Below, piece by piece: positions 2,618-43,601 of a stretch of 64,000 nt of DNA (positions are counted from its first letter, which is position 1; the number at the start of each line of letters is the position of its first letter). The stretch lies in NCBI GenBank assembly GCA_020722015.1, contig DYLQ01000005.1, positions 8,453-72,452 of the forward strand, read 5' to 3'. The stretch comes from Thermotoga sp. (GTDB lineage Bacteria; Thermotogota; Thermotogae; Mesoaciditogales; Mesoaciditogaceae). Under the pieces are notes generated by a model that searched no databases, was not told the origin of the DNA, and worked only from the letters and a program-made list of their open reading frames with translations. Both the position numbers and the translations under genes were made by a program.

Positions 2618-3927
2618 CTTTATTTGAAAAGATAACTTCAAAAAAGGCAACAGTCGGTGTGATTGGCCTTGGTTACGTTGGATTGCCGTTGGCAGTTGAA
2701 AAGGCCAAAGCGGGTTTCAACGTCGTTGGCTTTGATATTCAAAAAAGCAAAGTTGATATGGTAAATGCTGGTCACAATTACATAGGCGATATCGTGGATT
2801 CAGATCTCGAAAAACTCGTTAAGAATAAGAAATTAAGGGCAACAAATGACTTTGATGAGATAAAAAATTGCGACGTTGTTACCATTTGCGTTCCGACTCC
2901 TCTTGATAAATTCAAACAACCGGATCTGACATACATAATCGACAGCACAAAAGAAATTAAGCCGCGTCTTCACAAGGGAATGCTTGTTACGCTTGAATCC
3001 ACAACATATCCGGGTACTACAAATGAAGTTGTGCTTCCGATACTTGAGGAAACCGGTTTGAGAGTCGGAAAAGATTTTTACCTTGCTTTCAGTCCGGAAA
3101 GGGTCGATCCCGGAAATTTGATTTACAAAACGAAAAATACTCCTAAAATAGTTGGCGGTGTAACCCAAGAGTGCACAAAACATGCAAAAGCCATGTATGA
3201 AGCCATATTGGAAGCACCTGTTAAGATTGTGTCTTCTCCGAGAGAAGCTGAAATGGCTAAAATACTTGAAAATACTTTTAGAATAGTCAACATAGCCCTT
3301 GCAAATGAAATGGCACTCGTCTCGAATAGAATGGGAATAAATTACTGGGAAGTCGTAGATGCGGCCGCAACAAAGCCGTTTGGATTCATGCCATTTTATC
3401 CCGGTCCAGGCGTCGGAGGACATTGTATACCGATAGATCCGTTTTATCTTACTTACAAAGCAAGAGAATACGATTATCACACGAGGCTCATAGAACTTGC
3501 CGGAGAGATAAACGATTCTATGTCTGAGTATGTCGTCGAAAGGTTTTCCGATCTTTTAAACAAGAAGAAAAAATGTTTAAACGGTTCTAAAATTCTAATT
3601 ATGGGAGTTGCTTACAAAGGTGATATCGATGACATAAGAGAATCGCCAGCACTCAAGGTTATCGAGCATCTCGAGAAAAAGGGTGCTATCGTGGTTTATC
3701 ATGATCCATACATTCCGCAGTTTACTCATAACGATAAAACTTACAAAAGTGTTGAAATTACGAAGGACCTTTTGAGTTCTGTCGATGGGGTATTGATAAC
3801 GACGGCACATAAAAAACACGTTGATTATAAATTTTTGCTCGACAACGCGCCTCTCGTTTTTGACACGAAAAATGTCACGAAGGAATTATCCGCCGAGCAT
3901 AAATATCTTAATATTGAGGTGATTTGA
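2614..3927 (+). CDS. UDP-N-acetylglucosamine 6-dehydrogenase (WbpA/WecC-like)
   Basis: GLGYVGLP, ICVPTP, ESTTYPGTT, FSPER, GGHCIPIDP, GVAYKGDIDDIRESPA. Confidence 0.92.
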   Translation: MTLFEKITSKKATVGVIGLGYVGLPLAVEKAKAGFNVVGFDIQKSKVDMVNAGHNYIGDIVDSDLEKLVKNKKLRATNDFDEIKNCDVVTICVPTPLDKFKQPDLTYIIDSTKEIKPRLHKGMLVTLESTTYPGTTNEVVLPILEETGLRVGKDFYLAFSPERVDPGNLIYKTKNTPKIVGGVTQECTKHAKAMYEAILEAPVKIVSSPREAEMAKILENTFRIVNIALANEMALVSNRMGINYWEVVDAAATKPFGFMPFYPGPGVGGHCIPIDPFYLTYKAREYDYHTRLIELAGEINDSMSEYVVERFSDLLNKKKKCLNGSKILIMGVAYKGDIDDIRESPALKVIEHLEKKGAIVVYHDPYIPQFTHNDKTYKSVEITKDLLSSVDGVLITTAHKKHVDYKFLLDNAPLVFDTKNVTKELSAEHKYLNIEVI

Positions 3928-35694: not shown

Positions 35695-36333
35695 ATGAAA
35701 AAAGTGATGTTGCTTTTTATTTTGATCTTTTCAATTCTCTCGATCTCAATTTTCGCAAGCGGTCAAATCGTCGTTGATAAAGTTTTGACAGGTAAGACCA
35801 TAGTTTTGGATCCCGGAAATGGGGGTACGGATCCCGGTGCGATAGGTCCGACGGGCTTGCTTGAGAAAGGCATAAATTTAAAGGTTGCCCTTGATCTTGC
35901 TCAGTTGTTGAAAATTCAAGGGGCAAATGTCATTCTGACACGTGCTACGGATACTTATGTGCCTCTCAAACAGAGAGTAGATATAGCCAACCAGGCAAGT
36001 GCAGATCTTTTCATATCGATCGCTCACAATTCCATTCAAGGTGCTCCGAGCGTCGACAGACCTCAGATTTTCTACTGGAGCACATCCAACTCTTCCAAAC
36101 TCGCTGCCGACATATTCCTCAAAGCATTTGAAAGATTTTTTGGCACAAATGGTGATCTGATAAGAGAAGAATTCACAATTCTAAGATATGCCACGGTTCC
36201 GGCTATTCTTGTCGAACCGTGTTTTATGTCCAATCCGTCAAGAGAGATATGGTTAAAGAGCGCCAAAAATCTCTGGCGCGAGGCCGTGATTTACGATATG
36301 GCGGTGCTTGAATATTTCGAGAGTCAATCATAA
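35695..36333 (+). CDS. N-acetylmuramoyl-L-alanine amidase (Amidase_3) homolog with altered Zn ligands
   Basis: Signal peptide; IVLDPGNGG, EKGINL, LTRATD, SIAHNS, ILVEPCFMSN; AGAGGTGA SD before ATG 35695. Confidence 0.82.
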   Translation: MKKVMLLFILIFSILSISIFASGQIVVDKVLTGKTIVLDPGNGGTDPGAIGPTGLLEKGINLKVALDLAQLLKIQGANVILTRATDTYVPLKQRVDIANQASADLFISIAHNSIQGAPSVDRPQIFYWSTSNSSKLAADIFLKAFERFFGTNGDLIREEFTILRYATVPAILVEPCFMSNPSREIWLKSAKNLWREAVIYDMAVLEYFESQS

Positions 36334-36906
36334 TCCTATGGTGAATTTTCTTGTGCCGGGCTTGACTAACGGAACTTTATCTTTGCATAAGGGACATTCT
36401 TCTGCTTTGTAATTGTTCAAAGGTAATTCGATGAGCGTTTTTATGGGAAATCCGTTTATTTCGTTTAAATTTCCCCTGTTTGCGATTGAAGCGGTACAAA
36501 CTGTCGGAGCACCGTATTCATGAAGCAGTTCCATCACCTCTTTCGTTGACTTTCCGGTTGTTATCACATCTTCGACTATCGCGATTCTTTTAAATTGTGA
36601 CGGATCAAAATCTCTTCTGAATCTCATCGTACCGTCGTCGGTCCTTTCGGCAAAAAGAAATGGAACGTTGAGATGTTTCGATACTTCGTATCCTATTATG
36701 ATTCCTCCTATTGCCGGCGAAACTACACAATCGGGATTGTAAGCAGAAATTTTAACAGAAATTCCATAACCCAATTCTTCAGCGTACCAAGGAAATTTCA
36801 ATGCTTTTGCACATTGTATGTATGAGTCCGAATGCAAGCCTGATGATAACAAAAAGTGCCCATGGATCAAAGCATCCGTGTCTTCAAGAATTTTTTTGTA
36901 GTCCAT
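36328..36906 (-). CDS. pyrE: orotate phosphoribosyltransferase
   Basis: GHFLLSSGLHSDSYIQC, IAIVEDVITTGKS. Confidence 0.95.
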   Translation of the reverse strand: MDYKKILEDTDALIHGHFLLSSGLHSDSYIQCAKALKFPWYAEELGYGISVKISAYNPDCVVSPAIGGIIIGYEVSKHLNVPFLFAERTDDGTMRFRRDFDPSQFKRIAIVEDVITTGKSTKEVMELLHEYGAPTVCTASIANRGNLNEINGFPIKTLIELPLNNYKAEECPLCKDKVPLVKPGTRKFTIGL

Positions 36907-36914
36907 ATTTCACC

Positions 36915-37679
36915 TCACAAAGCCAACATTTTGGAATATTCATACGCAGATTTCGACGGATCTTCCGAAAAAATTACGGCTCTTGAAATGTTCACGAGAA
37001 TTCTGTCATGTGCGATTGAATTCATGACGATTTCAACATCTCCGCCTTGTGTACCTATTCCCGGAATCAGGATAAGGCTCTCTTTTGATATTTGAGATAT
37101 CTCAGAAAGTTTTTCGGCGACAGTTGCACCAACGACAAGGCCGCAATTTCCATACTTTTTATTTTTATCATCGACAAATTCAGCGACTTTAGCGTAAAGC
37201 GGAGGTGTTCCGTGATATTCGAAATCAACGGCACTTTTATTGGATGAAAGACATACGACAAAAACATACCTGTCTTCATAGGCAAGAAATGGATCTATAG
37301 CATCCTCTCCCATGTATGGAGAAAGCGTTATGGCGTCGAAGTTGAAAAAGTCAAATGCTGCTTTCGCGTAAGCTCCGGCCGTTGATTCTATATCTCCGCG
37401 TTTAGCATCGTATATGACCGGAATGTCACCTATAAGATCGCGCGTCTTCAAAAGTGTATTCATTCCTTCAGAACCGAGAGCTTCGTAAAATGCGGAGTTG
37501 ATCTTATACGCACACGTCATATCTTTTGTTTTTTCGATGATCGATCTGTTGAACTCGTATACGCCTTGAGCATCTTTTGAAAATCCTTTCGGCAATTTTT
37601 CAACATCCGAATCAAGACCTATGGTTAAAACATTTCCAACCAGACGCATTCTGTTTCTTATCTTTTCTGTGAATTTCAT
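36915..37679 (-). CDS. pyrF: orotidine-5'-phosphate decarboxylase
   Basis: IGLD, YKINSAFYE, DAKRGDIEST, LIPGIGTQGG, NISRAV. Confidence 0.95.
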   Translation of the reverse strand: MKFTEKIRNRMRLVGNVLTIGLDSDVEKLPKGFSKDAQGVYEFNRSIIEKTKDMTCAYKINSAFYEALGSEGMNTLLKTRDLIGDIPVIYDAKRGDIESTAGAYAKAAFDFFNFDAITLSPYMGEDAIDPFLAYEDRYVFVVCLSSNKSAVDFEYHGTPPLYAKVAEFVDDKNKKYGNCGLVVGATVAEKLSEISQISKESLILIPGIGTQGGDVEIVMNSIAHDRILVNISRAVIFSEDPSKSAYEYSKMLAL

Positions 37680-38578
37680 CTGAAGCCCCCTCTGTGTGAT
37701 GCGCCTATGATCTCTTTAATATCGAGTTTAAGTGCTTCAAGAATTTTTTTGAGATCTTCAATTATCTTTTGAATGGATTTCGGATCTATCATGGCTTGTG
37801 TTCCAATCTCGATAAGCGATGCACCGGCAACTATGTATTCTACGACATCCTCAGCTTTTTCGACCCCGCCGAGCCCTATTATCGTAAGCTCAGGAAATGC
37901 TTGCTTTACCTGATAAACTTTCCATAAAGCGATTGGCATGAAGGCGGGACCGCTCAATCCACCCCTTACATTTTTCAAAAACGGCTTGCCTGTTTTCACG
38001 TTGAACCTTGCTCCTTGGATTGAATTTCCGATGTTCACGATCTTTATACCGGACTCCATCGCAATTTGAGATTGCCATACGGTATCGAGATCGAGCGATA
38101 ACTTTGCTATCAAAGGTTTTTTTGTCGTCATTTTGCAAGCCGACAATATCTCTTTTGTCAATTTAGAATCGGAGGCTATGACACTTCCGCCAACATTCGG
38201 GCATGAAAGATTTACCTCTATCATATCCGCAAATTTCTCGACTTTTTTTGTTACATTTGCAAAATCTTCAGGACTTTCTCCTCCGACTGAAATTATTCTG
38301 ACGCATGTTTGGGGAAGAGATGGTGCGATCTTTTGGATGAAAAAATCAACTCCCGGGTTTTGAAGACCTATGGAATTCAGAAGACCGTTTTGAAGGTAAA
38401 CAAGCCGAGGAGGTATATTGCCCGTTATCGGATAAGGTGTCACCGTTTTTGAAGTGAATCCGCCTATGGTATCGGAAGACGTGTATTTGAAAAATTCATC
38501 TCCGAATCCCAAAGGGCCGGAGGCCGTTACAATCGGATTTTTAAAATGAATTCCTTCTATTTCTATCGATAAGTCCAT
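37676..38578 (-). CDS. pyrD: dihydroorotate dehydrogenase 1B catalytic subunit
   Basis: NSIGLQNPG, EVNLSCPN, GGLSGPAF. Confidence 0.95.
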   Translation of the reverse strand: MDLSIEIEGIHFKNPIVTASGPLGFGDEFFKYTSSDTIGGFTSKTVTPYPITGNIPPRLVYLQNGLLNSIGLQNPGVDFFIQKIAPSLPQTCVRIISVGGESPEDFANVTKKVEKFADMIEVNLSCPNVGGSVIASDSKLTKEILSACKMTTKKPLIAKLSLDLDTVWQSQIAMESGIKIVNIGNSIQGARFNVKTGKPFLKNVRGGLSGPAFMPIALWKVYQVKQAFPELTIIGLGGVEKAEDVVEYIVAGASLIEIGTQAMIDPKSIQKIIEDLKKILEALKLDIKEIIGASHRGGFR

Positions 38579-39225
38579 TCGAGATCAACCTCCGAAACGT
38601 TAAAAGTCGGTCCGTCTTTGCAAACGAATTTAACCCCGTCTTTTGTCATAACGGCGCATCCTTCGCACATGCCACGAGCACATGCCATCTTCTCTTCCAT
38701 CACGGCATAAATCGTACTTTCCGGGAAAGCACCTTTGATATCTTTTATCATTTCGTTAGGGCCACAGGCTAAGATATTTTCCAAAGGTGATAATTTTGCC
38801 ACATCCGTCGGGGTCGTAGGATCTACAACGCATATGCAATGATCCGGTATGTCCACAAAATCAAAAAGTTCGTCATCGGGCATACCTACTATCATCTCTT
38901 CAAAATCATATGTGGAAGCATAAAAATGAATGGGGGCATATCCTACTCCTCCTGCCATTAAAAGTACATCGTCTATTTTTGGAATTGCGTTTCCGAACGG
39001 TCCATCAACGATCAAATCTCCGTTTAGAAATTTTTCTGTTTCTCCTTTGGATTTGATGAGAAATTTTAAATTGCCGTCTTTTAGATCGTAGACGCTGAAA
39101 GGTCTTGGAATATAAGGACCTGCCTGGGTTTTTATCGTGAAAAACTGACCCGGCATTGCCTTACCACTGTATGGCAATTCAAGCAAGATGTAAGACCCTT
39201 TTTTCGAGACTTTCAACATTTCCAT
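38563..39225 (-). CDS. pyrK: dihydroorotate dehydrogenase electron-transfer subunit
   Basis: PGQF, RPFSV, GPFGN, AGGVG, MACARGMCEGC...VCKDGP 2Fe-2S motif. Confidence 0.92.
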   Translation of the reverse strand: MEMLKVSKKGSYILLELPYSGKAMPGQFFTIKTQAGPYIPRPFSVYDLKDGNLKFLIKSKGETEKFLNGDLIVDGPFGNAIPKIDDVLLMAGGVGYAPIHFYASTYDFEEMIVGMPDDELFDFVDIPDHCICVVDPTTPTDVAKLSPLENILACGPNEMIKDIKGAFPESTIYAVMEEKMACARGMCEGCAVMTKDGVKFVCKDGPTFNVSEVDLEWTYR

Positions 39226-40444
39226 ACACCTGCCTTCCGTTAACGTACGTCGCTATAACCTTGCCGTTCAAATTCTTGTTTAAAAATGGTGTGTTTGAAG
39301 ATTTCGATAGAATCGTATTTCTCGAGACATTCCACTTTTGATTTGGATCGAAGATGACGAAATTTGCCGGCAATCCTTTTTCTATTCGTCCTTCGTTCAA
39401 CTTGTATAATTTTGCCGGATCTGATGTAACCTTTTTTAAAAGTAACTCGGTTTTCACGCCTCTTTGAGAGACGATGAGGATCTCGTTCAGAAGTGTTTCG
39501 AATCCAATGATTCCGAATGGAGCAGATTGAAATTCCACTTCTTTTTCTTCAGACGTGTAAGGTGCATGATCCGTTATTATCGCATCTATTGTTCCATCTT
39601 CAAGACCTTCATAAAGTGCGATCTGATCTTCTGCCGTCGGGAAAGGAGGATTTATCTTTTTCGAGGTATCGTAGTCGTTAAGATCCTTGTCTGTAAAGAC
39701 AAGATGATGAATGCACACATCACATGTGATCTTTATCCCGTCTTTTTTTGCCTGTCTTATGAGTTTTACGGATCTCGCCGTTGATACATGGGCTATATGC
39801 ACATGAGCCTTCGTCAGGTAAGACAGCTCTATTTCTCTCGATACCGCTATCGATTCTGCGACATCCGGCATGGCATATATTCCGTAAAGTGTCGAATACC
39901 ATCCTTCTCTCATATGGCCTGTTCCGAGATCTTTATCCTGACAGTGAGAAATTATCGGAAGATCAAGCTCATACGCGTATTCCATTGCATGACGGGCAAG
40001 AAAAGCGTCCGTCAGGAAATTCCCATCGTCTGAAAATCCAACAACTCCTGCACGTGCCATTCTGTGCATTTCTGTAAGTTCTTTCCCTTCTCTTCCTTTC
40101 GTTATTGCACCGACAATTTTAACGTTTGCCTTTGCGTATTTTGCTTTTTCTTTCACGTATAGAACCATTGTTTCGTTGTCTATTGCCGGATTCGTGTTCG
40201 GCATGGCAAAAACAGTCGTTATACCGCCGTGAACCGCAGATTGTGTGCCGGAGAGGAGATCTTCCCTTTTCGTTTGACCCGGATCTCTCAGGTGTGCGTG
40301 TGTGTCTATAAGACCGGGCAATACCCAAAGACCGTCGAGGTTTAATTTTCCCCCATCTTCTTGTGCTTCAAAACGTTCGTTAAAGGCAAAAGATCCGTTG
40401 TAAAATCTTTCTCCATCGAAAATATTTGCGTTATCAAAGATCAT
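39179..40444 (-). CDS. pyrC: dihydroorotase (type I)
   Basis: PGLIDTHAHLRDPG, MPNTNP, FSDDG, HIAHVST, TDHAP, SKSSNTPF. Confidence 0.95.
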   Translation of the reverse strand: MIFDNANIFDGERFYNGSFAFNERFEAQEDGGKLNLDGLWVLPGLIDTHAHLRDPGQTKREDLLSGTQSAVHGGITTVFAMPNTNPAIDNETMVLYVKEKAKYAKANVKIVGAITKGREGKELTEMHRMARAGVVGFSDDGNFLTDAFLARHAMEYAYELDLPIISHCQDKDLGTGHMREGWYSTLYGIYAMPDVAESIAVSREIELSYLTKAHVHIAHVSTARSVKLIRQAKKDGIKITCDVCIHHLVFTDKDLNDYDTSKKINPPFPTAEDQIALYEGLEDGTIDAIITDHAPYTSEEKEVEFQSAPFGIIGFETLLNEILIVSQRGVKTELLLKKVTSDPAKLYKLNEGRIEKGLPANFVIFDPNQKWNVSRNTILSKSSNTPFLNKNLNGKVIATYVNGRQVYGNVESLEKRVLHLA

Positions 40445-40470: not shown

Positions 40471-40621
40471 TATACTAAACACTTTTCAAAATTGAAATAT
40501 AATTTAAATTTGACGGAGAGCAAATTGCCTTGCAGGTGGCCTCCGCAGCGAAGCGAGGACCAGACACCGAAAGGTAATTGCTGAAGTCAAATGACTTCAT
40601 TTTTAAAGTTGATTAGGTATA
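40471..40621. repeat. ~150-bp TATA-bounded element, copy C, overlapping the last codons of pyrB
   Basis: TATACTAAAC...GATTAGGTATA; core identical to copy B; arms closest to copy A. Confidence 0.92.
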
Positions 40622-41510
40622 ACAAAGCCATTCTTACGAATACACCGTTTGTTACTTGTTCTTCAACGGTCGAAGCATCTGAGTCTGAGACAGAGTCGAT
40701 CACCTCTACGCCTCTGTTCATCGGACCGGGATGCATGAAAATGGAGTTTTCCTTTGCAAAACTCATGGTTTTCGGGGTTATTCCGTAAAATTCATTGTAC
40801 TCATCCAAAGAGGAGAAAAATCCTGTTGTTTGCCTTTCAAGCTGCATTCTAAGTCCCATTATCACGTCGGCATCGTTAACAGCATCTTCAATATCGTTGG
40901 ATAATCTTATGCCGTATTGTTCCGCACCCATAGGCATTAATGCATTTGGCCCGACAAAAGTTACATCCGCTCCCAACATCGTAAGAAGTTTTGCATTCGA
41001 TCTTGCGACTCGGCTGTGGAGTATATCTCCTACGATTGCGATTTTAAGCCCTTCTATTTTTCCAAAACGTTCCCAGATCGTGTACGCGTCTAAAATTGCC
41101 TGAGTCGGATGTGCCCGAATTCCGTCTCCGGCGTTTATCACAAGAGCCTTTGTGTATTTTTTAAGCATCATAGGACTTCCAGGTTCGGTATGCCTTATAA
41201 CGTAAAGATCTATTCCCATCGCATCAAGAGTTTTGACGGTGTCTTTGAATGATTCTCCTTTGTTGAGAGAACTCGTTGAGGCTGTGAAATTTACAACGTC
41301 GGCTCCAAGCCTTTTTGCAGCAATTTCAAAAGAAATCCTCGTTCTTGTCGAGGATTCGAAAAAAAGTGTACATATCGTTTTGCCCTTTAAAGAAGTCCAT
41401 TTCTTCGCAAAACCGGCCTCCTTGAATCTTTGTGCCGTTTCGAATATCAATAGAACGTCGTTTAAAGTTAAATCGTCGACATCGAAAAGATCCATTCCGA
41501 AGATACTCAT
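40587..41510 (-). CDS. pyrB: aspartate carbamoyltransferase catalytic subunit
   Basis: FFESSTRT, HPTQAILD, VGDILHSRVARSN, MHPGPMNRG, QVTNGVFVRMA; AGGAG SD before ATG 41510. Confidence 0.97.
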   Translation of the reverse strand: MSIFGMDLFDVDDLTLNDVLLIFETAQRFKEAGFAKKWTSLKGKTICTLFFESSTRTRISFEIAAKRLGADVVNFTASTSSLNKGESFKDTVKTLDAMGIDLYVIRHTEPGSPMMLKKYTKALVINAGDGIRAHPTQAILDAYTIWERFGKIEGLKIAIVGDILHSRVARSNAKLLTMLGADVTFVGPNALMPMGAEQYGIRLSNDIEDAVNDADVIMGLRMQLERQTTGFFSSLDEYNEFYGITPKTMSFAKENSIFMHPGPMNRGVEVIDSVSDSDASTVEEQVTNGVFVRMALLYLINFKNEVI

Positions 41511-41554
41511 ATCCCTTCTCCTTTCGTTGTGTGCTAAACAAAAATCATTTGACT

Positions 41555-41698
41555 TCATTTAATGTAAAAAAAAAAGACGCCCTTTAAAGGCGTCCTGTTT
41601 ATGTCAAAAATTGAAAGTCGATCGAAAAAGAAGGAAAATCCACCGCACTCTCCGTAACGGAGAAAAATGGGGAGCTTGATTTTTTCCGGCGATATCAT
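41555..41698 (-). CDS. putative pyr operon leader peptide (47 aa, PyrL-like)
   Basis: AGGAGG (41718-41713), then in-frame TTG 41701/ATG 41698; MISPEKIKLPIFLRYGECGGFSFFFDRLSIFDINRTPLKGVFFFYIK reads through the terminator. Confidence 0.6.
   Translation of the reverse strand: MISPEKIKLPIFLRYGECGGFSFFFDRLSIFDINRTPLKGVFFFYIK
41566..41594 (-). terminator. attenuator-type terminator in the pyrB leader
   Basis: Minus strand GACGCCTT-taa-AGGGCGTC followed by T10, between the promoter and pyrB. Confidence 0.88.
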
Positions 41699-41737
41699 CA
41701 AATTAACCAATTCCTCCTTTTGAAATTTTCAAAGGAA

Positions 41738-41766
41738 AGTATACTCCAAAAAAACCATAATGTCAA
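41738..41766 (-). promoter_or_regulatory. pyr operon promoter
   Basis: Minus strand TTGACA(41766-41761)-N17-TATACT(41743-41738). Confidence 0.85.
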
Positions 41767-41770
41767 CTGC

Positions 41771-41800
41771 TTGACAATTTATTTCAATATGTTGTAGAAT
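41771..41800 (+). promoter_or_regulatory. promoter of the tRNA-rpmG-secE-nusG unit, back-to-back with the pyr promoter
   Basis: TTGACA(41771-41776)-N18-TAGAAT(41795-41800). Confidence 0.75.
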
Positions 41801-42533: not shown

Positions 42534-43601
42534 ATGAAAAAATTATGGTATATAGTTCAAACTTACGCCGGTCTGGAAGAAACGGTAAAAGAATCAATAG
42601 AACAAAAAAGAGATCAAATGAATCTTTTCGATTTCGTAGGCAGGGTCTTTATACCACAAGAAAAAGTTGTGGATATGAAAAGTGGTCCCGTTGAAAAGAT
42701 AAGAGTTCCTTCGACGGCCAAGTTTCATGTTAATTCAGGTGAAGATATTGTCAAGGATCAGATGATAGCAGAACTTTCTGAAGTTCATGTAAAGCATGGT
42801 GGAAAGGTCATCGAAGTTAAGAACATGAGAAAACTTGTTATAGAGTCCATCGATCGAAAAAATAGCAGAACTTATTACATTCCCGCTGCTACGGGTATAG
42901 AAAGCGGCATAAGATTGGGTGCCAAATTGATTGAGGGAATGCCGATTGCAAAAGATAAATCTATTTTTTGTGAGATTGATGGTAAGGTTGTTCAAAACGA
43001 TCGTATCAAAAAAGTTGTAGTCCATCCAGAAGATGGTGAAGAAGATGACTTTTATTTTGTCCCACTTGAGTGCTTTAACAGATCCGTAAAAGTCAACAAA
43101 TCAATACATGCTGGAGATAAAATAGCGGATAAAAAGATATTCACATCTCCGACTTCGGGTATAGTTGAGATAGACGTCTTCGGTGCTTACAAAGAAATTA
43201 AAATATCCAAAGTTATATCCAAGAGGCTTTTCCCAGGTTATGTTTTTGTTGAAATGTTCATGAATGAGGAAAGTTGGGAAATAATTAAAAATACCGAACA
43301 TGTGATAAATTTCGTTTCAAATGCCGGACAACCTATTCCTCTCAAGGCGAAAGATGAAAAATTGATCTCGAGTTTGATGATTGAGAAAAAGAGTTCTAAG
43401 ACTACAGAAGAGGTAAAAGTTAACATAAACCTTGAAATCGGAGAACGTGTTAAAATAAAAAGCGGGCCTTTTGAAGGTTTTGCAGGTACAGTTAAAGAGG
43501 TAAGACCTGATAAAAAAGAGGTAACCGTTATGGTTACGATCTTCGGAAGAGAAACTCCCGTAGTTTTAAATGTTTCCGAAGTTGAGAAAGCAGTTTCATA
43601 A
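42534..43601 (+). CDS. nusG: transcription factor NusG with a large central insertion
   Basis: WYIVQTYAGLE, LFPGYVFVEM, KOW GERVKIKSGPFEGF, VTIFGRETPV. Confidence 0.95.
   Translation: MKKLWYIVQTYAGLEETVKESIEQKRDQMNLFDFVGRVFIPQEKVVDMKSGPVEKIRVPSTAKFHVNSGEDIVKDQMIAELSEVHVKHGGKVIEVKNMRKLVIESIDRKNSRTYYIPAATGIESGIRLGAKLIEGMPIAKDKSIFCEIDGKVVQNDRIKKVVVHPEDGEEDDFYFVPLECFNRSVKVNKSIHAGDKIADKKIFTSPTSGIVEIDVFGAYKEIKISKVISKRLFPGYVFVEMFMNEESWEIIKNTEHVINFVSNAGQPIPLKAKDEKLISSLMIEKKSSKTTEEVKVNINLEIGERVKIKSGPFEGFAGTVKEVRPDKKEVTVMVTIFGRETPVVLNVSEVEKAVS

Follow-up and report, generated by a model that had tools for sequence, protein, structure and literature searches.

How is a pyrimidine operon controlled when its leader is not accompanied by the regulator that such leaders usually serve? 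Attenuation of the pyrBI type has so far been an enterobacterial speciality, and PyrR is the regulator generally assumed for most other bacteria whose pyr operon has a leader. The locus studied here raises this question in another phylum. It lies in a 64,000-nucleotide (nt) stretch of contig DYLQ01000005.1 (assembly GCA_020722015.1, positions 8,453 to 72,452), which we call the window. Its source belongs to the Athalassotoga branch of the Mesoaciditogaceae, a family that branches deeply in the Thermotogota, and the PyrB proteins nearest to that of the window are those of Athalassotoga (77 to 82% identity) and Mesoaciditoga (70 to 76%). The genes for uridine monophosphate synthesis in the Mesoaciditogales reportedly have a recent history in common with those of the Petrotogales (PMC10476701). 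A sequence-only reading of the window had proposed that the region upstream of pyrB is a leader-peptide attenuator that senses uridine triphosphate (UTP), laid out as in E. coli pyrBI and working without PyrR. We favor a related answer, to which we give a probability of about 0.6: the pyrBCKDFE operon would be governed by a ribosome-coupled leader-peptide attenuator like that of pyrBI (pyrL), which outlived the loss of PyrR. That type of mechanism is already known; new would be its presence in another phylum and its derivation by PyrR loss. We found no paper on pyr regulation in the Mesoaciditogales and no family for this leader in Rfam, Pfam, or NCBIfam.

The promoter, Shine-Dalgarno (SD) sequence, open reading frame (ORF), hairpin, tracts, terminator, and pyrB SD and ATG that the sequence-only reading had listed are all present on the minus strand of the window where it had placed them (Table 1). 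We collected 19 distinct leaders, that of the window included, in one scan of reference genomes, one scan of metagenomes, and three look-ups of contigs that encode PyrR; they come from the Mesoaciditogaceae and from a single lineage that is more distant. In nine loci, pyrB comes next after the leader (window, L002, L003, L070, L004, L006, L066, L012, and L061), and in ten, pyrR comes next and then pyrB (L005, L008, L009, L010, L011, L059, L139, L142, L144, and the more distant L067). Locus L004 is the complete genome of the cultured Athalassotoga saccharophila NAS-01 (PMC7163026), which has a chromosome and two plasmids. All the leaders have a promoter; in 18 of 19, it is TTGAC(A/T)-N17-TATAAT and keeps a constant distance to the start codon of the leader. 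A G follows the -10 box by 7 to 8 nt in all relatives, and every leader has a strong SD and a start codon (ATG, or GTG in L142). A comparison of the relatives, the check that the sequence-only reading had suggested, came out as it had supposed: the SD, open frame, tract, and terminator are conserved while the amino acids diverge freely. Single elements vary in how readily they occur by chance. Promoter-like sites by themselves are not enriched (6 found versus 4.5 expected), and TTGACA-17-TATACT, with an 11/12 match, surpasses the other promoter-like sites of that strand in the region. Terminator-like sites are enriched (8 found versus 1.6 expected), the window terminator folds at -13.3 kcal/mol (z = -5.35), and stretches of 22 nt as pyrimidine-rich as the tract make up 0.26% of such segments of this sequence. 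Judged from the sequences, the strongest argument against a chance arrangement is that the layout is kept at the 18 other loci.

The leader frame is kept open. Between the start codon and the terminator, summed over the 19 leaders, the ORF frame holds 1 stop codon and the other frames hold 35 and 31. The ORFs are 28 to 88 codons long; the earliest stop codon lies 13 nt ahead of the terminator stem, and the latest ones lie well past the terminator. The leader peptides (MISPEKIKLPIFLRYGECGGFSFFFDRLSIFDINRTPLKGVFFFYIK in the window) are unrelated in sequence, without amino acid conservation within the 19; all three frames cross the terminator among the leaders (RTPLKGV..., KDAFKRRP..., EGRL*), and an indel inside one sub-clade measures exactly 3 nt. 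No family match was found for five of the peptides in Pfam-A or for two in NCBIfam at E values up to 10. These comparisons indicate that selection holds the frame open and leaves the peptide sequence free, such that translation matters and its product does not. A functional small protein was rejected because of the lack of amino acid conservation, the three frames across the terminator, and the lack of a family match. The only recurrent codon run is Phe, which, as had been suggested, merely reflects the U tract; no other codon run is conserved in the leaders.

Nine of the leaders have a stop codon that overlaps the region in which the downstream gene starts. In A. saccharophila NAS-01, the leader ORF has 49 codons (L004 3852-4001, AP019551.1), and its TGA overlaps the pyrB ATG (ATGA). 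This ORF is annotated in GenBank as the hypothetical protein ATHSA_0200 (BBJ27332.1), which is the leader peptide. In three metagenome-assembled genomes (MAGs) of Athalassotoga sp., GC-rich repeats of 210 to 330 nt that resemble miniature inverted-repeat transposable elements are inserted between the terminator and the ribosome-binding site (RBS) of pyrB (L002 3690-4000, L070 2800-3000, and L060 1-240). The L002 insert comprises two copies, containing ...CGCAGCGCAGCGAGGAC...CTGCCGGAGCTAATATTTTGAATCTAAACCAGTTT..., and it is because of the repeat insertion that the leader ORF ends far from pyrB in L002 and L070.

An intrinsic terminator is present in all 19 leaders and has undergone compensatory changes. 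Its stem occurs as GGACGCC/GGCGUCC, GGACACC/GGUGUCC, GGGACGC/GCGUCCC, and GGGACAG/CUGUCCC, and one sub-clade contains a G-U intermediate (GGACGCC/GGUGUCC beside GGACACC/GGUGUCC and GGACGCC/GGCGUCC). None of the 19 leaders was found to contain an upstream sequence with which the 5' terminator arm could pair. When this arm was added to the upstream RNA, folding gained 0 to -5.6 kcal/mol at 37°C and 0 to -2.6 kcal/mol at 55°C, and the E. coli pyrL control gained 0.0 in the same test. The terminator hairpins themselves have -11.8 to -18.7 kcal/mol. Because the gain is far below the terminator energy, an antiterminator was rejected in all 19 leaders.

This leaves the position of the ribosome to be considered. 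In an E. coli reporter, the ribosome represses a terminator nearly fully when it lies a few nt after the stop codon, an effect that is gone beyond about 27 to 30 nt; the terminators of amino acid attenuators lie >20 nt past the leader stop, and the pyrBI terminator lies inside a 135-bp leader gene in which pause sites couple translation to transcription (PMC4824070). By this measure, all 19 leader stops are within the range of direct terminator repression by the ribosome, and the leaders belong to the pyrBI class. The proposed pyrBI-type layout is thus borne out, in that the ORF is kept without amino acid conservation, reaches the terminator in all 19 leaders, and is not accompanied by an antiterminator. 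The trp, his, and leu attenuators likewise have a short translated leader in which the ribosome decides the fate of a downstream intrinsic terminator. The window leader differs from them in lacking both a regulatory codon run for the end product and a 2:3 antiterminator, and the 19 leader stops precede the terminator stem by no more than 13 nt, if at all.

The likeness to pyrL of E. coli K-12 (b4246) extends to the arrangement of the parts. Both leaders have a promoter-proximal SD and an ORF that extends across an intrinsic terminator located shortly before pyrB; in both, a hairpin, a pyrimidine/U tract, and the terminator follow in this order, Phe-Phe-Phe is encoded at the tract, the stop codon lies past the terminator stem, and there is no antiterminator. 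Distances from the leader AUG, which for the hairpin and the tract agree almost to the nucleotide, are given in Table 1. The two differ in that they share no sequence homology and come from different phyla, the window peptide has no family match, the operon is pyrBCKDFE rather than pyrBI, the leader stop is 44 nt from pyrB rather than 3 nt, and the leader family of the window has a history with PyrR. Because there is no sequence homology despite the same geometry, the sequences identify the window leader and pyrL as a case of convergence on one design.

Table 1. Features of the pyr leader and operon in the window, with distances from the leader AUG in the window and in E. coli pyrL
Feature	Position in window	Strand	From AUG, window	From AUG, E. 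coli pyrL	Description
-35 box of pyr promoter	41761..41766	minus			TTGACA; 17-nt spacer to -10 box
-10 box	41738..41743	minus			TATACT; G at about 41730 is the likely transcription start (inferred)
Leader SD	41713..41718	minus			AGGAGG; 14 nt ahead of ATG
Leader ORF	41555..41698	minus			47 codons, ATG 41698 to TGA 41557-41555; spans hairpin, pyrimidine tract, and terminator; peptide 47 aa (E. coli pyrL, 44 aa)
Two-part hairpin	41640..41670	minus	nt 29-59 (upper stem 36-50)	nt 33-50	Lower stem CCAUU/GGUGG, upper stem UUCUCC(G)/(C)GGAGAG, loop UUA
Hairpin 3' arm			nt 45-50	nt 45-50	
Pyrimidine/U tract	41624..41638	minus	nt 61-75	nt 61-74	UUUUCCUUCUUUUUC (E. coli pyrL, UUUUUCUUCCCGUU); proposed nucleoside triphosphate (NTP)-sensitive pause region
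Additional U runs	41606..41617	minus			CUUUC, UUUUU; between tract and terminator
Intrinsic terminator (attenuator)	41566..41596	minus	stem, nt 105-123	stem, nt 91-106	Stem AGGACGCCUU/AAGGGCGUCU(U) at 41596-41574 and U10 to 41566; inside leader ORF
Stop codon end			nt 144	nt 135	
pyrB RBS	41518..41523	minus			AAGGAG (SD GGAG 41521-41518); kept in relatives
pyrB (aspartate carbamoyltransferase)	40587..41510	minus			307 aa; Pfam OTCace_N and OTCace; 82% identity to an Athalassotoga sp. PyrB
pyrC, pyrK, pyrD, pyrF, pyrE	36328..40444	minus			Remaining operon genes (Pfam); pyrR not among them

From these parts, we propose the following course of events. Transcription would start about 30 nt upstream of the short leader ORF, and RNA polymerase would make the hairpin and then the pyrimidine-rich tract. 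About 30 nt past the tract, it would meet the strong intrinsic terminator inside the ORF. Because no alternative RNA structure prevents the terminator hairpin from forming, only a ribosome trailing closely on the leader would cover the 5' terminator arm, so that polymerase reads on into pyrB. When UTP (and perhaps also cytidine triphosphate [CTP]) is scarce, polymerase would linger at the hairpin and tract, the first ribosome would catch up, and termination would be suppressed. When pyrimidine nucleotides are ample, polymerase would outrun the ribosome, the terminator would form, and the operon would be attenuated. What the sequences show are the parts, the selection on an open frame, the lack of an antiterminator, and the conservation of the leader across the loss of pyrR; UTP or CTP as the signal, which the conserved hairpin and pyrimidine tract suggest, and likewise the pausing, the NTP sensitivity, and the ribosome dependence of the leader are inferred. 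UTP-sensitive reiterative transcription, which requires a T-run right after the start site (PMC6524683), was rejected as a family feature: the window has GAAAAUUUC after the likely start, the relatives have GGCUUAAGG and similar sequences, and a T-run at this place is not conserved among them.

The hairpin and the tract are features of the whole family. A hairpin occurs 25 to 57 nt past the start codon in all 19 leaders. Its arms were compared by an arm-swap test on 13 independent leaders, which replaced a column-wise count of covariation because the MAFFT alignment of the hairpin was not structure consistent. Cognate arms gave -15.7 kcal/mol versus -10.6 kcal/mol for noncognate arms, and 0 of 20000 permutations reached the observed value. 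This signal comes mainly from the pyrR-containing leaders, in which cognate arms ranked 1 to 3 of 13 for seven of eight and 5 for L005, and where the hairpins have -13 to -24 kcal/mol (L009 being the extreme, with z = -5.2). The pause hairpin of the sequence-only reading may descend from a protein-binding hairpin, because it is much stronger, and its arms clearly co-vary, where PyrR is present. Positions +4 to +14 after the hairpin are 71 to 92% pyrimidine and 35 to 78% U in 14 independent leaders (window background, about 49% and 29%), and U content is 49% from the hairpin to the terminator versus 16% from the ATG to the hairpin. The tracts that had been described as U-rich are present and consist of U and C rather than of U alone. 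Within the pyrR-less sub-clades, the stems are invariant, and the loops and internal loops drift, with UUA, GCA, UGAUGU, CGAUUC, and GCG found as loops in this clade. The stems, tract, and terminator have been under constraint there since pyrR was lost.

Several observations weigh against the ribosome-coupled attenuator. The window hairpin (core UCUCCG-UUA-CGGAGA, 41663-41649) is only moderate, with -11.7 kcal/mol and z = -2.0, and 9 of 200 shuffles fold equally well. Throughout the pyrR-less clade, hairpins are weaker, and cognate arms are hardly better than others (rank 3 for the window and 7 to 11 for three others), so that the hairpin of this clade may be partly a relic. The spacing between the leader SD and the ATG is 14 nt in the window versus about 5 to 7 nt in the relatives, because of an insertion of 9 to 10 nt, TTGGTTAATT; this spacing should weaken or slow ribosome loading, a step that the mechanism needs. 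The C content of the tract is as expected for a generic pyrimidine or anti-SD-like element, and the tract is complementary to SD sequences (the leader SD and the downstream RBS) both in the family and in E. coli; pausing is possibly not its sole role. A distant PyrR (<50% identity) or another RNA-binding protein may be encoded elsewhere. Finally, the mechanism would lean on transcription-translation coupling in Thermotogota, and tight coupling is not true of all bacteria.

Three side observations touch these points. The insertion (window 41699-41712) sits between the leader SD and the ATG, and its AAUU-GGUU-AAUU could form a small hairpin that moves the SD nearer to the start codon. The leader could also start at an in-frame TTG at 41701, and the ORF listing extends the leader from an upstream in-frame TTG (41555..41710). 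As to pausing, NusG-dependent pausing of RNA polymerase occurs at TTNTTT motifs in Bacillus; the NusG of the window (42534-43601) has an extra domain, NusG_add (Pfam), which could be relevant if pausing in the tract is NusG dependent.

The weak hairpins and the wide spacing would also suit a regulatory relic, in which the leader, after the loss of pyrR, sets a constant, unregulated read-through and the ORF is translated merely so that the terminator can be passed. In favor of this reading, the hairpins of the pyrR-less clade are no more specific than noncognate arm pairs, the SD-ATG spacing of the window has drifted to 14 nt, and three Athalassotoga MAGs have taken up repeats of 210 to 330 nt without the locus being destroyed. 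A useless terminator should decay, however, and the terminator, ORF, tract, and stems are kept in all four pyrR-less sub-lineages, whose PyrB proteins have 74 to 82% identity. The compensatory changes in the terminator, an indel that is a multiple of 3, and a tract that coincides in position with the E. coli pyrL pause region likewise speak for a leader that still works, and we regard a mere relic as unlikely.

The complementarity of the tract leads to another explanation, in which the tract is an anti-SD element. It would pair with the leader SD, ending the time available for ribosome loading, or with the pyrB or pyrR RBS, coupling translation of the first gene to that of the leader; either role can coexist with ribosome-coupled attenuation. 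Minimum free energy (MFE) folds pair the tract with the pyrB RBS (about 14 bp) or with the leader SD (11 bp), long perfect matches occur in several leaders (14 bp in L061 and 11 bp in L005), and the overlap of the leader stop with the downstream start region in nine leaders would fit such coupling. On the other hand, cognate pairs are no better than noncognate pairs, be it with the leader SD (P = 0.18) or with the downstream RBS (P = 0.27), and pairing is poor in L004, L006, L010, and L012. Because cognate pairs are no better, the complementarity is that of any pyrimidine tract to a purine-rich SD. A specific long-range helix between the tract and the RBS or SD was rejected for want of co-variation, and only generic complementarity was retained; as the explanation of the leader, an anti-SD element is improbable. 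In the MFE folds of both leaders, the tract pairs with the leader's own SD and encloses the hairpin, over 8 bp in E. coli pyrL (L146 1060-1134) and 11 bp in the window (41624-41720). We know of no description of this pairing for pyrL.

As the sequence-only reading had stated, there is no pyrR in the operon and no PyrR box in the leader. A tblastn search of the 64-kb window with two Mesoaciditoga PyrR proteins matched only the phosphoribosyltransferase motif in pyrE, and no pyrR was found in any pyrR-less locus examined. Rfam searches, at permissive thresholds for the window leader and L009 and at gathering thresholds for 11 relatives, returned only tRNAs and noise; RF00515 did not match the window or the relatives, except for one weak PyrR match in L009 (15.5 bits, E = 6) that was absent in a narrower search. 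The same family does match pyrR-pyrB loci of other phyla (L016 and L026). The best matches to the PyrR-box consensus ARUCCAGAGAGGYU (PMC7430163) in the leaders had 5 to 7 mismatches, no better than shuffles, and the window hairpin is without the canonical CCUUUAA and CNGNGA hexaloop of the generalized box (CCUUUAA...YC-CNGNGA-G...AAGG). We also built a covariance model, R1, from 22 canonical PyrR boxes of other phyla, which recovers 7 nonseed boxes at 27 to 44 bits. On the 19 leaders, R1 had no match in the window and matched only L009 (13.6 bits, E = 1.8). An R1 match at L066 624-667 (15.4 bits) was rejected, being inside a coding region and at chance level. The Bacillus-type PyrR attenuator (RF00515) resembles the window leader as a 5' leader of a pyr operon in the same pathway, with a hairpin and then an intrinsic terminator, and differs from it in that the window has no ARUCCAGAGAGGYU loop, antiterminator, anti-antiterminator, or pyrR and has a translated leader ORF.

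The distribution of pyrR shows where it was lost. The gene directly after the leader in L009 encodes PyrR (NCBIfam equivalog NF003549, 178 bits; cutoff, 138). The pyrR-less loci group together in a PyrB tree as a single clade, whose sister is the Mesoaciditoga clade with pyrR; L067, which also has pyrR, lies outside both. Since this leader is also found ahead of pyrR-pyrB in the sister clade, the absence of PyrR is the derived state, and the simplest history that the tree suggests is a single loss of pyrR in the clade of the window. This history refines the earlier suggestion that the mechanism had arisen or been kept in this lineage: neither a simple origin nor a simple persistence accounts for a leader that stands before pyrR-pyrB in the sister clade. 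A Mesoaciditoga PyrR was also used as a query against 5.8 billion proteins. Among the matches listed, 13 are close relatives (68 to 99% identity), and the next have ≤52% identity; the 4 of the 13 that lie outside the loci of the PyrB scan (P0010, P0012, P0013, and, via L064, P0001) are also in pyrR-pyrB operons. The database includes the complete proteome of A. saccharophila (its PyrB is BBJ27331.1). Because no close match from it is listed, a close PyrR is very probably absent from this complete genome, as far as sequence similarity can tell. One PyrR of the family is unusual: that of L011 (also P0008) ends in a triple tandem repeat, GAGSAGGTHNSGIR (L011 2150-2279), as a result of which it has 217 aa versus the usual 175 to 186 or so.

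A competing explanation is a trans-acting protein. The hairpin would bind a PyrR encoded elsewhere, or another RNA-binding protein, which together with UMP (uridine monophosphate) or UTP would block the leading ribosome or stabilize the hairpin, so that the terminator forms. Much of what points this way comes from the pyrR-containing relatives: the same leader stands before pyrR-pyrB in the sister clade, its hairpins are much more stable there and their arms clearly co-vary, and five of six Mesoaciditoga leaders share the loop/3' motif YAAGCGGRG (L005 is without it). In addition, L009 has in the 5' half of its hairpin the very sequence (ACCCUUUAAACCGC) that a canonical PyrR box in L017 has in its own 5' half, and the weak R1 match of L009 is at the right place. 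From these two resemblances, a PyrR loop may be the ancestor of the family hairpin; we take this as a lead and not as a result. For the clade of the window, the evidence runs the other way. No pyrR was found in the window or in the pyrR-less loci, no PyrR of >52% identity outside the pyrR-pyrB-linked group was among the matches listed from a database that includes the A. saccharophila proteome, the window hairpin has no canonical features and no RF00515 or R1 score, and loops vary freely in the pyrR-less clade. We consider a trans-acting protein unlikely in this clade.

A model of this kind is said to have been proposed for Thermus ZO5. There, Van de Casteele et al. (1997) reportedly described a pyr leader whose ORF overlaps a terminator upstream of pyrR-pyrB, and PyrR is said to have been proposed to act on leader translation, with no antiterminator. 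This would be the arrangement of the sister clade (the ten loci with pyrR). The clade of the window differs from it in having no pyrR, and a canonical PyrR box is absent from all 19 leaders. Where the leader is accompanied by pyrR, PyrR probably acts on the stronger hairpin; as in the model reported for Thermus ZO5, it would hinder the leading ribosome. Two Deinococcota loci, L037 and L048 (about 3340-3411), have another layout: unlike the leader reported for Thermus ZO5, they have no leader ORF, and a canonical PyrR box (CACCUUUAAUCCGGUCC.GUGAGGCCGGGAAGGAG) lies over the SD and GTG start of pyrR, as expected for translational repression and not for attenuation.

Around the leader, the start of pyrB and the upstream region call for comment. 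The leader TGA does overlap an in-frame ATG at 41558 (ATGA), as the sequence-only reading had seen. The role of this ATG as a pyrB start is very unlikely from the comparison of sequences, because the PyrB proteins of all relatives begin at the MSI.G.D.FDVD equivalent of ATG 41510 (minus strand), behind a conserved SD. The NCBI gene call for the window PyrB starts at ATG 41558, just 3' of the terminator U-run, and has 323 aa (P0122); the call of the Joint Genome Institute (JGI) starts at 41510 and has 307 aa, with the same start as all relatives. The 323-aa call is very probably wrong and too long. Upstream of the operon are three divergent tRNA genes. The promoter of tRNA-Thr/Tyr/Trp (TTGACA-18-TAGAAT, 41771-41800) is on the plus strand, and the palindrome TTGTCAAGCAGTTGACA (window 41761-41777) is made up of the -35 box of this tRNA promoter and that of the pyr promoter on the minus strand. 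The same back-to-back palindrome is present in L002, L070, L012, and L061 and not in L004. It is probably just two back-to-back promoters and less probably an operator.

A wider reading of the family is tentative, and we think it rather doubtful in its full form. The family would record a shift between the textbook controls of pyrimidine synthesis. Its ancestor would have lacked an antiterminator and combined PyrR with a translated leader and a hairpin bound by protein. PyrR would then have been lost in the Athalassotoga clade, leaving a purely kinetic sensor that reads UTP or CTP directly, made of a polymerase slowed on the pyrimidine tract and the first ribosome, which converged on pyrL down to the nucleotide positions of the hairpin and tract. 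Corollaries of this reading would be functional coupling in one of the deepest branches of Thermotogota and a tract that is perhaps an anti-SD timer in both lineages.

If the ribosome-coupled attenuator is real, then pyrimidine nucleotides would be sensed through the ribosome in a deep-branching thermophilic phylum, and transcription and translation in Thermotogota would be coupled closely enough for a ribosome to control a terminator. The sister clades, which have the same leader with and without PyrR, offer a natural experiment on what this leader does once PyrR is gone.

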